NCBI GenBank assembly: GCA_037147175.1
Contig: JBAWVS010000002.1
Coordinates: 15,104-79,103 of the forward strand
Reading direction: 5' to 3'
Length of the DNA: 64,000 bases
DNA from: a bacterium
GTDB lineage: Bacteria > Cyanobacteriota > Vampirovibrionia > Gastranaerophilales > UBA9971
Under the pieces are notes generated by a model. That model was not told the DNA's origin. It did no database searches and saw only the letters and a list, made by a program, of their open reading frames with translations. This document shows, piece after piece, positions 55,979 through 59,769 of the stretch. Made by a program: the position numbers and the translations under genes. Position 1 is the stretch's first letter; each line of letters begins with the position of its first letter.

Positions 55979-56830
55979 ATGAATAATCACGAAAATATCA
56001 GACAAATAGCTTTATACGGCAAAGGCGGCATAGGAAAATCCACTATTTCCAGTAATTTAACCGCTGCTTTGACATGCAAAAATATAAAACCGGCCCAAAT
56101 TGGTTGCGATCCAAAGGCAGATTCGGTAAATACTTTAATGGACGGCAAATTTATAGAAACGATTTCCGATATAACAAGAGAATACGGGAATTCAAAAGAG
56201 GCGCTTCAGAAAGCTATTTACAAAGGATTTAACGACATTCTTTGTATGGAGGCGGGAGGACCTTTTCCCGGGCAGGGATGCGCAGGTAGAGGGGTTCTGG
56301 TTGCACTTGATTTGATTAGGCAGTATAAAATTTTTGAACAAAATAATATTGATCTGGTTGTTTATGATGTGCTTGGGGATATTGTATGCGGTGGTTTTGC
56401 CCAGCCTATCAGGCATGGATTTGCGGAAGAAGTTTACATTGTTACAAGCGGGGAGTATATGGCTCTTTATGCGGCTAATAATATTGCTTTTAGTATAAAA
56501 CAATTTGCTCAGCAGGGATTAAAAGTAAGAGTCGGAGGAATTATAGGAAATCTCAGAAATATTCAAAACGAAAATGAAATTATTAATAATTTCGCTGAAA
56601 AGTTAAAATTACCTGTGATTCAAATGATTCCACGATCTGATTATGTACAAAAAGCAGAGATTAAAGGCAAAACAGTCGTTGAAGTCTTTCCTGATTCAGA
56701 GCAAGCTGAAGTTTATTTTGAACTTGCTTCTAAAATACTTGGTAATAAAAATAAATTTATACCTGAAGCTCTTTCTAAACAGGAACTTTTAGGAATAATA
56801 AATATTGAAAATAAGGTTCTGGCTAATTAA
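55979..56830 (+). CDS. NifH-like ATPase / [4Fe-4S] reductase component of a nitrogenase-like enzyme
   Basis: P-loop YGKGGIGKST, switch I GCDPKADS, cluster Cys in GQGCAGRG (C101) and switch II DVLGDIVCGGFA (C137). Collinear with A. vinelandii NifH as I recall it. Confidence 0.9.
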   Translation: MNNHENIRQIALYGKGGIGKSTISSNLTAALTCKNIKPAQIGCDPKADSVNTLMDGKFIETISDITREYGNSKEALQKAIYKGFNDILCMEAGGPFPGQGCAGRGVLVALDLIRQYKIFEQNNIDLVVYDVLGDIVCGGFAQPIRHGFAEEVYIVTSGEYMALYAANNIAFSIKQFAQQGLKVRVGGIIGNLRNIQNENEIINNFAEKLKLPVIQMIPRSDYVQKAEIKGKTVVEVFPDSEQAEVYFELASKILGNKNKFIPEALSKQELLGIINIENKVLAN

Positions 56831-58387
56831 ATGGAATTAAAAACTTCAAAATTGCAAAAAGCAGGATATAAATGGGTAAAAGTTTCTGAAATGTTTGATG
56901 AAACTCCTCCTGTAACTGCTAGTTGTGAAATTAATAAAAGATTTCCGGGCTACGAAGGGCTTTGGTGCAAGCTGATTATGGCTGTAACAAGTTATGCCAT
57001 GACTAAAAATTCTATAGCAGTTATACATGGACCTACTAATTGTGCGTGGGCAGTAAGGAATTTTTGTTCTACAAATTATTCTCTTTATTATGGAAATCCC
57101 TTTTTACATATGCCTGTTACAAATATAGACCAGAATTCAGTAATTTATGGCGGGAATCAGGAGTTAATAAAAACGCTGTTAGAGGTTGATAAGGATTATA
57201 AGCCCGAACATATATGTGTTTTTGACACTTGCTCAACCGCACTTATAGCTGATGACATTGAAAGGGCTATACAAACTGCCCGAAAAGATTGCCATGCAAA
57301 GATTGATTATATTCCATCAGCAGGTTTTACGTCTATTCCTCTTGGCAAATCTATAGAAGAAATAGCAGTAAAATATGCAGATATGATGGAAGAACCTTCT
57401 GAAATATTTAAAAGTACCGTAAATATTCTCGGACAGTACAAAGAGCAACAGGATAGCTCACCTGTAAAATGCACTGGGAAGAGAGACGGAAGCGGAATGG
57501 GCTGCGGAAAAGGACGGGGGAAATATCCTGATGACGCTTCTGAATTATCGAGAATAGTTGAATCAATAGGTTTAAAAATTCACCGAATTTTAATTTCAGG
57601 GAATTATGATTATATAAAAACCGCACCACAGGCAGCCGTTAATGTAATTAGCTGCCCTACTTGGGGCGTGCCGCTTGCTGAAAAAATGAAAGAAAAGTTT
57701 AATACTCCCTATTTAAGACATTGTATTCCCGTAGGGATTGGACCAACTTCAAAATGGATAAGGGATTTGGCAGTTTTTACAGGTAAACAGTCAGAAGCTG
57801 AAGATTTTATAAATAAAGAAATTTTGCCATTGCAGGAAGTATTTGATAAAACGAAAAATCTTGTTAAAGGCAAAGCCGCCCTGATAGAATGTGGAAGAAA
57901 CTCTCAAACAGCTTTTGCAAGACCGATGGCTTTAGCAAGAGCATTGCAGGAATTAGGCATGAATATATATTTATTTGGGCTTCATCCCGTAGAGTTGAAA
58001 GCAAAAGAAGTTGATGTGGATTATTTCTTATGGGATGGCTTTAATCCTATGATTCTTTCTGGCAATTATCCTAATCAACAGCCTTTAGATATAACAGAAG
58101 TTGCGAAAACACTTGATTTGGAAGAGAATCAATATATTTATTTTACTCAGGATGTTTTCCCAATGGCAAAAGCAGGAACTTTTGATGCGGAAAATATTCC
58201 AAGAGTTGAAACAGGTGTACATTTACGGCGTGTTATAAATGCACCTGCAAGAGGAGTAGGTTTCAGAGGGGCAAAAGCACTTTATGAAAGCATAATTGAA
58301 GCATCAATGTTCTCTTCAGGAAGTAAAAAAGCGACTTTATATGGAAGAGTGCATGGAGAATTTTATGAATTTGGGCGAAAACAATGA
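56831..58387 (+). CDS. NifD/NifE/BchN-like catalytic-component subunit (D-like)
   Basis: HGPTNCAW, IYGGNQELIKTL and FDTCSTALIADDIE align by eye with NifD HGPVGC, VFGGDKKLAKL and SECPIGLIGDDIE. The ATG directly follows the NifH-like stop. Confidence 0.8.
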   Translation: MELKTSKLQKAGYKWVKVSEMFDETPPVTASCEINKRFPGYEGLWCKLIMAVTSYAMTKNSIAVIHGPTNCAWAVRNFCSTNYSLYYGNPFLHMPVTNIDQNSVIYGGNQELIKTLLEVDKDYKPEHICVFDTCSTALIADDIERAIQTARKDCHAKIDYIPSAGFTSIPLGKSIEEIAVKYADMMEEPSEIFKSTVNILGQYKEQQDSSPVKCTGKRDGSGMGCGKGRGKYPDDASELSRIVESIGLKIHRILISGNYDYIKTAPQAAVNVISCPTWGVPLAEKMKEKFNTPYLRHCIPVGIGPTSKWIRDLAVFTGKQSEAEDFINKEILPLQEVFDKTKNLVKGKAALIECGRNSQTAFARPMALARALQELGMNIYLFGLHPVELKAKEVDVDYFLWDGFNPMILSGNYPNQQPLDITEVAKTLDLEENQYIYFTQDVFPMAKAGTFDAENIPRVETGVHLRRVINAPARGVGFRGAKALYESIIEASMFSSGSKKATLYGRVHGEFYEFGRKQ

Positions 58388-59769
58388 ACATAATTAAATC
58401 AGATAGACAATATAAGGATTTAATGAAGCCGGGAAGCTTCATAGGTAGTACCTTGACAGCTTCCGGAATAAAAAACGCGCTTATAATATTTCATGGAATA
58501 TCAGGATGCAACATTGAAGCAACGCACTTCCGCTCTGACCAGATACCGGGAGGAAGTTATGTCCCTGTGATTCCAACTGGATTAAATGAAGCAGACTGTA
58601 TTCAGGGAGGAAATGAAAAACTTTTATTAACCCTGAGAAATTCCATAAATCAGGCTATTTCAAGAAAAAAACCCCCTGAAGTTGTTTTTATTTTGACAAG
58701 TGATGCAACTGCTATTGTCGGTGATGATATAAAAGTAGCTGCAAAAGTTGTGGAAGAAGAAACAGGAGTGAAAATAATCGGGTTAGATACACCGGGATTT
58801 GCAGGAGGATTAGTTCATGGAACAGATATTGCTTTGTCTGCATTGTTGGAGTGCCATTCTGAGAGCATAAGTCGAAATGGTAAATCAAACAATAAAAAAT
58901 CAATAAATCTTATAGCGCCTCATTTGTTGGGTTCTAAAAACTGGACAAACGACACTGATGAAATTATAAGGCTGATACAGGAAACAGATATTCTGGTCAA
59001 TTTAAATATGACCAGAAACTTTGATTTAAAAGATATTTCCGAATTTGCAAAAGCTGAATTTAACTATATTCTTTCTTCAGAAGAATTGACAAATTTTGAA
59101 AAAATATGTTCTGATTTAAACTCAAAAATTTTAAAAGAAAATTTACCTTTGCCTATAGGTGTTGCAAATACAGAAGAATGGCTGTTAAAAATTGCCGAAA
59201 AGTTCGGTAATATTGAGAAAGCAAAAGAAGTACTGGTCAAAGACCAGAAATTTGTTCAAAATCAGCTTAGATTAAATTATAATTTCAGTTGGATGTCGAC
59301 TTTGATGTACGGAAAGCACTGCGGTATCCTTGCGCATGCAAAATTTGGGGCGTCTCTTGCACGCTGTTTGCTTTGGGATTTTGGGATTATTCCCAAAGTT
59401 ATAGGGCTTGTTGCAGAAACCGACAGAGCTATGGATGAAGCGCTTGAGCTTCTTAAAGCAATTAAAAATCAGGCAAAATTCACTGTTTTGATTAATCCGT
59501 CATATTTTGACTATATAAATCATTTAAAAACAGCTGAAGTGGACTTTGCTATAGGCTCTATACAGGACAAACCGCTGTGCATAGGGCAAAAAATACCTCA
59601 TTTGTCGCTGGCAGGGTTTAATTTTTTCAATCAATACAATTTTATTCCATGGCCAAATTTTGGAATAAGAGGGACTTTGGGGCTTTTAACAGAGCTCTCA
59701 GGTATTATGGAAGAAGCTTTTTACTTAAAAAACATGATTTCTTCAAATAATTATGAATTTAAAAAATAA
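58384..59769 (+). CDS. NifK/NifN/BchB-like catalytic-component subunit (K-like)
   Basis: FHGISGCN, IQGGNEKLL and LTSDATAIVGDDI align by eye with NifK HGSQGC, VFGGQQNM and STTCMAEVIGDD. ATGA overlap with the D-like gene. Confidence 0.75.
   Translation: MNIIKSDRQYKDLMKPGSFIGSTLTASGIKNALIIFHGISGCNIEATHFRSDQIPGGSYVPVIPTGLNEADCIQGGNEKLLLTLRNSINQAISRKKPPEVVFILTSDATAIVGDDIKVAAKVVEEETGVKIIGLDTPGFAGGLVHGTDIALSALLECHSESISRNGKSNNKKSINLIAPHLLGSKNWTNDTDEIIRLIQETDILVNLNMTRNFDLKDISEFAKAEFNYILSSEELTNFEKICSDLNSKILKENLPLPIGVANTEEWLLKIAEKFGNIEKAKEVLVKDQKFVQNQLRLNYNFSWMSTLMYGKHCGILAHAKFGASLARCLLWDFGIIPKVIGLVAETDRAMDEALELLKAIKNQAKFTVLINPSYFDYINHLKTAEVDFAIGSIQDKPLCIGQKIPHLSLAGFNFFNQYNFIPWPNFGIRGTLGLLTELSGIMEEAFYLKNMISSNNYEFKK

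Follow-up and report, generated by a model that had tools for sequence, protein, structure and literature searches.

What would a set of three nitrogenase-like genes, standing alone among housekeeping genes, be doing in a non-photosynthetic anaerobe? The question is raised by an operon, here called H-D-K, found in a stretch of 64,000 nucleotides of a Melainabacterium (Vampirovibrionia), namely positions 15,104 to 79,103 of contig JBAWVS010000002.1 in assembly GCA_037147175.1; this whole stretch is the window of the following discussion. We see about an even chance that the operon encodes an ATP-driven, Fe-protein-dependent reductase, distinct from nitrogenase, with a NifEN-type [4Fe-4S] cluster at its subunit interface and a second, probably NifB-derived, cluster bound to Cys275 of its D subunit. 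The features on which the argument is built are these, the first four in the window:

55892-55919, + strand: intrinsic terminator of rpoD, a 12-bp stem followed by a T-run, taken as the upstream limit of the H-D-K transcription unit
55979-56830, + strand: H, NifH-like Fe protein, 283 amino acids (Pfam PF00142, motifs)
56831-58387, + strand: D-like component-1 subunit, 518 amino acids (Pfam PF00148, ligand alignments, structure model, trees)
58384-59769, + strand: K-like component-1 subunit, 461 amino acids (Pfam PF00148, ligand alignments)
6176-12338 of locus L034, contig AMFJ01007676: H-D-K and downstream genes of the related Melainabacterium ACD20

Both junctions can be read directly in the sequence: the stop codon of H abuts the start codon of D (TAA-ATG, 56828-56833), and D overlaps K by an ATGA (58384-58387). 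The three genes are predicted to be translationally coupled within a single transcription unit; their G+C content (0.34-0.37) is that of the remaining window. Compared with the orthologs of Cyanobacteria bacterium UBA9971, they display ratios of non-synonymous to synonymous change (dN/dS) of 0.08 (H), 0.10 (D) and 0.11 (K), at a synonymous divergence (dS) of about 1; strong purifying selection thus acts on all three, and we take them to be functional. An earlier note on this DNA had described three tightly coupled genes at these very places, coding for a canonical NifH-type ATPase with both of its cluster-binding cysteines and for two paralogous component-1 subunits, in a host that looked like a non-photosynthetic anaerobe, and on all these points it was borne out.

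The Fe protein and the two component-1 subunits

The H protein matches the Fer4_NifH family (PF00142, 313 bits). It has a Walker A motif, GKGGIGKS, at residues 14-21, a switch I, CDPKADS, at residues 43-49, a switch II, the [4Fe-4S] ligands Cys101 and Cys137 (the latter within DVLGDIVCGGF) and Arg104, and it reads as a complete Fe protein. Against the curated NCBIfam models it scores 350 bits for nifH (cut-off 394), 343 for CfbC (402), 213 for BchL (345) and 182 for BchX (331); among the sequences of solved structures its best match is MarH (9fmg_D, 268 bits), marginally above NifH (259 bits). A protein of 100% identity in a metagenome-assembled genome at NCBI is annotated as 'nitrogenase iron protein NifH'. 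An equivalent of Arg104, the residue that is the target of ADP-ribosylation in NifH, is kept in the H proteins of the family; a gene for an ADP-ribosylglycohydrolase (DraG-like family) was also seen at 20017-20925 of a related locus discussed below (L001), about 7 kb downstream of its operon.

Ligands of the two other subunits were placed by alignment with NifD and NifK of Azotobacter vinelandii (sequences identical to the PDB chains), with MarD of Rhodospirillum rubrum (from the alignment to 9fmg_A), with NifE, NifN and NifK of a Paraburkholderia plasmid and with VnfDG, VnfK, VnfE and VnfN of a Nostoc plasmid. Modelling with AlphaFold2 covered D, the residues of its pocket being placed by alignment.

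D belongs to the Oxidored_nitro family (PF00148, 155 bits). Its best NCBIfam model is nifE, at 112 bits for a cut-off of 505, nifD reaching only 79 bits for a cut-off of 654; when compared by sequence with solved structures, it matches the NifEN fusion, Clostridium NifD and MarD alike, at 65-71 bits. Cys46, Cys71 and Cys134 align with Cys62, Cys88 and Cys154 of NifD, the ligands of the alpha side of the P-cluster, and are kept in 78-79 of the 79 family members. In the region of the cofactor, Cys275 falls exactly in the column of NifD Cys275 and MarD Cys270 (it is present in 76 of the 79 members), Arg364 aligns with NifD Arg359, and His464 sits on the loop of NifD His442 and MarD His450, two to three residues off His442. 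These three residues are invariant in 15 D sequences of the Melainabacteria type. Other residues of the known active sites are replaced: the columns of NifD Gln191 and His195 are occupied by Leu and Ile, that of MarD Trp195 (HWSTGFD) by Leu, and the position of MarD Arg428-His429 by Thr-Gln (YFTQDV), an Arg-His pair being found at this place in none of 23 aligned family members. In MarD this pair binds the L-like cluster, and nearly all members of Group IV share it (2026 Chem Rev review).

The model of D has a predicted local distance difference test score (pLDDT) of 85.8 and a predicted template-modelling score of 0.87. Foldseek returns MarD (9fmg_A) as its top match, with an E value of 1e-22 and template-modelling (TM) scores of 0.66/0.72, closely followed by NifD, VnfD, AnfD and NifE (TM about 0.6-0.7). 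In the vicinity of the cofactor site, D and MarD have a short His-Pro stretch in common, which is absent from NifD, VnfD and NifE. Apart from these sites, D contains at about residues 205-232 (window 57443-57526) a Gly/Lys-rich insertion, SSPVKCTGKRDGSGMGCGKGRGKYPDD, which is disordered in the model (pLDDT below 50 over residues 208-228) and holds two cysteines, Cys214, found in 61 of 79 relatives, and Cys225.

K (PF00148, 169 bits) belongs to the same family. The nifK model gives 61 bits, with a cut-off of 427, and the nifN model 46 bits, with a cut-off of 327; of the two Nostoc proteins VnfE and VnfN neither is closer to K, both scoring about 104 bits. Cys95 of NifK, which becomes Cys42, is the sole cysteine kept at the ligand positions: Cys70 corresponds to Gly17, and Cys153 to a conserved Asp107 (TSDAT). 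Paraburkholderia NifN, with Ser, Cys and Gly at the same positions, likewise has a single cysteine. As deeper members of the family display Gly-Cys-Cys or all three cysteines, the loss is to be seen as a derived state. In the structure of A. vinelandii NifEN, such a pattern of three cysteines and one holds an interface [4Fe-4S] cluster, not an 8Fe P-cluster. Judged from these alignments, D and K make up a diverged heteromeric component-1 pair. In Melainabacteria GWA2_34_9 the K gene (9408-10744 of locus L010) is split into two overlapping open reading frames (ORFs) of 113 and 338 amino acids, as the consequence of either a frameshift that made it a pseudogene or an assembly error.

Relatives, gene order and neighbourhood

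More than 60 homologous clusters were found. The family occurs mainly in environmental Melainabacteria (named carriers include UBA9971, GWA2_34_9, Candidatus Caenarcanum and several metagenome-assembled genomes, or MAGs, of Gastranaerophilales), and also in MAGs of Chloroflexi, Desulfobacterota-type bacteria and Clostridia. Every cluster of the family with listed members is of metagenomic or MAG origin (the names being Deltaproteobacteria, Clostridia, Syntrophales, Chloroflexi and Thermodesulfobacteriota), with no cultured organism among those listed. An exhaustive HMMER search with D through 1.84 billion representatives gave 29 proteins below 1e-30, with 31-69% identity in alignments that span their whole length, after which the scores fall to about 120 bits, as expected of a discrete family. 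The scan of genomes for relatives was seeded with an alignment of 13 D sequences, a 26-sequence alignment being too divergent as a seed.

Among labelled proteins the nearest to D is VnfE of Nostoc (177 bits, 28% identity), followed by NifE (91 bits), MarD (82), VnfD (76) and NifD (61), and on rhizobial plasmids its best match is NifE, not NifD. Bootstrapping of a neighbour-joining tree recovers the D family as monophyletic in every replicate (100/100). It is placed as sister to, not within, a VnfE-like clade (75/100) that unites Nostoc VnfE with the 'nitrogenase associated protein E' of Methanosarcina acetivorans (92/100); MarD and NifD/VnfD/NifE are located elsewhere. This being a distance tree on very divergent sequences, the sister relation to VnfE is a lead, not a result. 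With respect to MarD and NifD/VnfD/NifE the family forms a separate clade, and it appears to fall outside the characterised nitrogenase-like groups. The 2026 Chem Rev review, which recognizes groups IV-A (Nfa), IV-B (CfbCD), IV-C (MAR), IV-D and IV-E (both of unknown function), IV-F (ISR), V (DPOR/COR) and VI (of unknown function), does not mention Melainabacteria, and in the literature on nitrogenase-like enzymes of Melainabacteria, Vampirovibrionia or Gastranaerophilales we found no paper classifying the clade. Two observations on the references and relatives may be added. On plasmid p057_H of Nostoc sp. C057 (11893-15157 of locus L028), vnfE and vnfN follow vnfDG-vnfK and are annotated merely as 'nitrogenase component 1'; they fail the nifE/nifN models (171 bits for a cut-off of 505), and this VnfN, unlike NifN, retains three cysteines of the P-cluster type. 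A Chloroflexi MAG, NC_groundwater_653 (loci L022, L025 and L026), has three D-like paralogs, with 43%, 33% and 32% identity to D of the window, one placed behind an ABC transporter of the 2-aminoethylphosphonate/thiamine/iron type and another in the order D-K-H-H.

With a NifH-family ATPase and two subunits of the Oxidored_nitro fold, the set belongs to the nitrogenase superfamily, and its likeness to known systems is of several kinds. It has in common with MAR (MarBHDK, Group IV-C; PDB 9FMG and 9D9U) the H-D-K architecture, the Cys270/275 ligand and, in the relatives of the window, an association with NifB; MarD is the best structural match of D, and MarH the best match of H by sequence in the structure database. 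It differs from MAR in having neither Arg428-His429 nor Trp195 in D, in belonging to a separate clade, in the absence of a sulphur-metabolism context, and in a K with one of the three P-cluster cysteines, where no P-cluster would be expected; an assignment to MarHDK was rejected on the place of D outside the MarD clade and on these missing residues. VnfEN and NifEN resemble it through VnfE, the closest labelled relative of D, through the three-plus-one interface cysteines and through the presence of a Cys250/275 equivalent. The set of the window, however, has its own H, is not found beside structural genes of a nitrogenase, lies outside the VnfEN/NifEN clade and scores under the nifE and nifN cut-offs; moreover, two aligned E-type sequences have no histidine on the His442 loop and a Lys at Arg359, whereas D has both the His and the Arg.

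Group VI, described from Elusimicrobia, is likewise known from MAGs only, never has more than four of the six P-cluster cysteines, in some genomes comprises H and D only (about one third of its systems) and usually has no nifB nearby. By its described features it differs in an H that is sister to BchL/BchX, in a D without Cys275 and in a neighbourhood rich in radical SAM or tetrapyrrole genes, the neighbours in the window being housekeeping genes; it was rejected because H scores much higher with the models of NifH and CfbC than with that of BchL, and Cys275 is conserved. NfaBHDK of Endomicrobium proavitum (IV-A) is also a stand-alone set in a non-canonical host, with a Cys275 equivalent and a B-H-D-K order that resembles that of L001. 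As described, it has the full set of six P-cluster cysteines, as well as the histidine typical of Group IV; in the window the set of cysteines is incomplete in K, and the Arg-His pair is absent from D; among 524 fetched proteins, none matched the published cysteine positions of Endomicrobium NfaD. ISR (IV-F) was rejected because its ligand set, with only Cys88 of NifD, three NifK cysteines and no Cys270, is the opposite of that seen here. The scores dismissed CfbCD (CfbC 343 for a cut-off of 402; CfbD, model methan_mark_13, 38 and 30 for 268) and, in Group V, DPOR and COR (BchL 213 for 345, BchX 182 for 331, BchB 69 for 490, BchN 20-33 for 420).

The order H-D-K is that of the window, UBA9971, GWA2_34_9, ACD20, ELA391 and others. 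H-D without K is found on long contigs, one of which has the dnaG-rpoD-H-D synteny of the window, and there are further arrangements, D-K without H and D-K-H-H. Because no remnant of K is detectable in the loci that lack it, and the D proteins there have no distinguishing substitutions, K is probably encoded elsewhere in these genomes; some of them may instead have a D-only enzyme. JGI sample 3300021166 contains a lone H on a 235-kb contig (L036) and a lone D, followed by a thioredoxin gene, on a 182-kb contig (L007), so that H and D appear to be unlinked in the organism of origin.

Of particular weight are two divergent relatives whose operon includes nifB. In a 50%-identical relative (L001, on a 955-kb contig) the order is H-NifB-NifX-D-K, with a K that has the Gly-Cys-Asp pattern of the window, and in a 42%-identical one (L030) it is NifB-D-K; both NifB proteins pass the equivalog cut-off of TIGR01290 (370 and 604 bits for 344). 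Among the closest relatives of the NifB of L001 we also met a distinct nitrogenase-like cluster, H-H-D-K, transcribed divergently from two PII genes and NifB (L033, GCA_041695105.1).

In ACD20 and ELA391 a Zn-dehydrogenase gene directly follows K, overlapping it in ELA391, and is itself followed by an acyltransferase-like gene; the window has neither. The dehydrogenases of ACD20 and ELA391 (L005/L006/L016) are 64% identical, and their best model, 6-hydroxycyclohex-1-ene-1-carbonyl-CoA dehydrogenase, gives 270 bits, under its cut-off of 339. Other copies of the operon are flanked by genes acting on esters of coenzyme A (CoA), such as an enoyl-CoA hydratase, a thiolase and a 4HBT thioesterase, and by ABC transporters.

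In the window, the upstream neighbours of the operon are dnaG and rpoD (ending at 55838), and downstream a thioredoxin-like gene with a signal peptide, glgC and lepA converge toward it. Pfam on 40 further ORFs gave housekeeping genes only (RNase E/G, PPDK, uvrB, guaA/guaB, argS, a pilT-like ATPase, dnaG and rpoD among them). Pfam annotation and blastp found no nifE, nifN or nifV in the 64 kb, where there is also no recognizable sulphur-salvage gene and nothing of the tetrapyrrole pathway except a corrinoid adenosyltransferase. An Rfam scan of the window and nine related loci detected neither riboswitches nor other regulatory RNAs in the vicinity of the operon, and an alignment of the upstream regions gave no informative signal. 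In UBA9971 (L008) and GWA2_34_9 (L010) a small XRE-like helix-turn-helix ORF (73 amino acids in the latter) lies directly upstream of H, at the place where the window has the rpoD terminator; it is possibly a local regulator that the lineage of the window has lost.

Elsewhere in the window we noted a radical SAM protein of 896 amino acids (2872-5562, - strand; Radical_SAM_N2, Radical_SAM and DUF2344) beside RNase E/G, which is not NifB-like; an unusual fusion of a GHMP kinase with an N-terminal 'large polyvalent protein-associated domain 3' (LPD3; 31371-32732, - strand); six ORFs of 167-762 amino acids without a Pfam match at E <=1e-5 (within 18780-22350, 25930-27162, 28057-28767 and 12381-13148), the largest, of 762 amino acids, at 19283-21571; a large bacterial signal recognition particle RNA (6032-6292, - strand, 123 bits); and one tRNA gene (22407-22480, - strand).

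We can now come back to what the earlier note had said of context and kinship. It had located the operon between rpoD and a convergent thioredoxin-like/glgC/lepA unit, with no nif, bch, cfb or mar accessory genes, and this is how the window reads after blastp and Pfam on the 40 further ORFs; for nifB, the statement does not extend to the two deeper relatives just described. Its proposal of an uncharacterised nitrogenase-like branch, with a substrate that cannot be predicted from context, agrees with scores that miss all curated cut-offs and with a D family monophyletic outside MarD and NifD/VnfD/NifE. The label 'group IV-type' has to be amended: the proteins are nitrogenase-like, but Group IV is not established, the Arg-His motif being absent. 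The three-subunit make-up is true of the window and fails as a fixed trait, since among close relatives some have just H-D, some just D-K, and others H and D without linkage. The note had named two placements that would speak against it. In the D tree MarD falls in a separate clade; a scaffold of the NifEN type is approached, with VnfE/VnfN-type proteins as nearest labelled relatives, but as a sister clade only and with no nif regulon. Finally, if no classification of the clade was found, the gene set was not wholly unnoticed, as its ACD20 ortholog had been published as a nitrogenase.

Candidate functions

In the reading put forward at the outset, a dimer of H would bind MgATP, and its own [4Fe-4S] cluster would donate single electrons to another such cluster located at the D/K interface. 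The latter would be held, in the manner of NifEN and in place of an 8Fe P-cluster, by Cys46, Cys71 and Cys134 of D and Cys42 of K, Asp107 of K being a possible extra ligand. Electrons would then move onward to a second site inside D, lined by Cys275, Arg364 and His464 and probably holding an 8Fe (L-type) cluster made by NifB, where a small substrate would be reduced. A NifB-made cluster is proposed for the Cys275 pocket because the divergent relatives L001 and L030 carry nifB, and L001 also nifX, in their operon; in MarD, the closest fold, an L-like cluster is carried by the cysteine equivalent to Cys275.

Several observations weigh against this reading. No nifB is found near the operon in any of about 18 Melainabacterial loci, and blastp detects no homolog of NifB or NifX in the window, so that the enzyme encoded there may have no complex cluster at all; nor is there a Melainabacterial name in the best 120 of the 1690 relatives of the L001 NifB. 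His464 is offset by two to three residues from NifD His442, and the equivalent His450 of MarD is not a ligand. It is common for the subunits to be unlinked, or for K to be absent from the vicinity, which makes a D2K2 stoichiometry an assumption. Gene context is not conserved among the relatives, where the Zn-dehydrogenase after K is the sole recurring link, and surveys report Vampirovibrionia to be without a nifHDKENB set.

Part of this evidence would be accounted for by a reductase working with [4Fe-4S] clusters only, as DPOR, COR and CfbCD do: the interface cluster alone, with no NifB-derived cofactor, would sustain a demanding two-electron reduction of some organic substrate, say at a ring C=C bond or in an enoyl- or aryl-CoA compound. 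We regard this as a serious, if clearly lesser, possibility. It fits the absence of nifB from the window and from the vicinity of every Melainabacterial copy seen, the loss of two P-cluster cysteines in K, the reduction of some relatives to H and D (as in CfbCD and part of Group VI), the dehydrogenase that follows K in ACD20 and ELA391 and the CoA-ester genes near other copies. The invariance of Cys275, Arg364 and His464 is however not easily accounted for unless there is a second metal site, two divergent members with the same or a similar ligand set have nifB in their operon, and the links with CoA or a dehydrogenase are few and under family cut-offs. Alternatively, D and K could be a platform of the VnfEN/NifEN kind, with H as its dedicated Fe protein, on which a cofactor is matured for another enzyme. 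The bit scores of D, highest for VnfE, the sister clade whose members are annotated as cofactor scaffolds, the three-plus-one cysteines and the match with NifE on rhizobial plasmids all point in this direction. Yet we hold it to be rather improbable: no client enzyme is evident, neither the window nor about 25 related loci having nifDK, vnfDK or anfDK, and Vampirovibrionia are reported to have no nitrogenase; furthermore, the family is placed beside the VnfE-like clade without being nested in it, the set comes with an H gene of its own, and 112 bits are reached where the nifE model demands 505.

There is a further reading, which we also consider improbable: a lineage derived from a maturase, sister to VnfEN and kept throughout the non-photosynthetic sister lineage of Cyanobacteria, would have turned catalyst, with an EN-type [4Fe-4S] cluster, an L-type cluster in a NifD-like Cys/Arg/His pocket instead of the Arg-His pocket of Group IV, and a carbon substrate, for instance an alicyclic or an aryl/enoyl-CoA compound. 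Such a substrate is hinted at by the co-transcribed Had-like dehydrogenase and the nearby CoA-ester genes of relatives. That the operon would be a genuine, primitive N2-fixing nitrogenase, as proposed for ACD20 and implied by the name 'nitrogenase iron protein NifH', is very improbable. It is true that Cys275, the equivalent of Arg359 and a His on the loop of His442 are all retained in D, and that atypical members of the superfamily, Nfa of Group IV-A and NifEN, reduce N2 weakly. Against this, H, D and K are all under the cut-offs for nitrogenase (79 for 654 with NifD, 61 for 427 with NifK), the window has no nifE, nifN, nifV or nifB, and of the six P-cluster cysteines that a nitrogenase needs there are three on D and one on K. 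Dinitrogen is an unlikely substrate because two P-cluster ligands are missing together with the catalytic Gln191 and His195, replaced by Leu and Ile. Least probable of all is a decaying remnant with no present function, an idea suggested by the split K of GWA2_34_9, by the absence of K beside D in several relatives and by that of the whole set from human-gut Melainabacteria; the genes of the window are intact, with every ligand, their dN/dS is 0.08-0.12 at a dS of about 1, and none of the key residues varies from one order of Vampirovibrionia to another.

The ACD20 genes and the place of the clade

The idea of a nitrogenase in these bacteria goes back to an inference of N2 fixation by Melainabacterium ACD20, drawn from its H-D-K gene set (Di Rienzi et al., 2013, in eLife). 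The supplement of that article lists for ACD20 only NifH, NifD and a 'putative NifK', the nifB of the text having no identifiers, and human-gut Melainabacteria are reported there to be without these genes. On the ACD20 contig, H-D-K comes after ribosomal-protein genes. Its H is 72% identical to that of the window, identity over codon-aligned positions is 70% for H, 69% for D and 71% for K, and K has the same ligand pattern. The genome bin behind the accessory nif genes proved later to be about 108% contaminated, and later surveys, which find no nifHDKENB set in Vampirovibrionia, score them as non-diazotrophic; the claim of nitrogen fixation by ACD20 is still repeated in the literature. The 'nitrogenase' of ACD20 is an ortholog of the window operon, and from the sequence features described we argue that it is a nitrogenase-like enzyme rather than a nitrogenase. 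This reassignment corrects a still-cited claim of a nitrogen-fixing Melainabacterium; it touches the timing of nitrogen fixation relative to the split between Cyanobacteria and Melainabacteria, as well as the inference of diazotrophy from nifH in anoxic waters.

Nitrogenase-like enzymes are known to perform unexpected chemistry, such as the C-S cleavage catalysed by MAR and ISR, and their uncharacterised clades are seen as the main open problem of the field (2026 Chem Rev review). The present clade is one of several, of interest to nitrogenase specialists. It differs from those described in that review in that it has no Arg-His motif, associates NifEN-like interface ligands with a NifD-like Cys/Arg/His pocket and adjoins VnfEN. 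This position next to maturases is relevant to the proposed origin of nitrogenases from ancestors that resembled maturases. Were the enzyme indeed a catalyst derived from a maturase, it would define a new class of reactions for nitrogenase-like enzymes, and would be a living example of the proposed 'maturase-like ancestor' stage in the evolution of nitrogenase.

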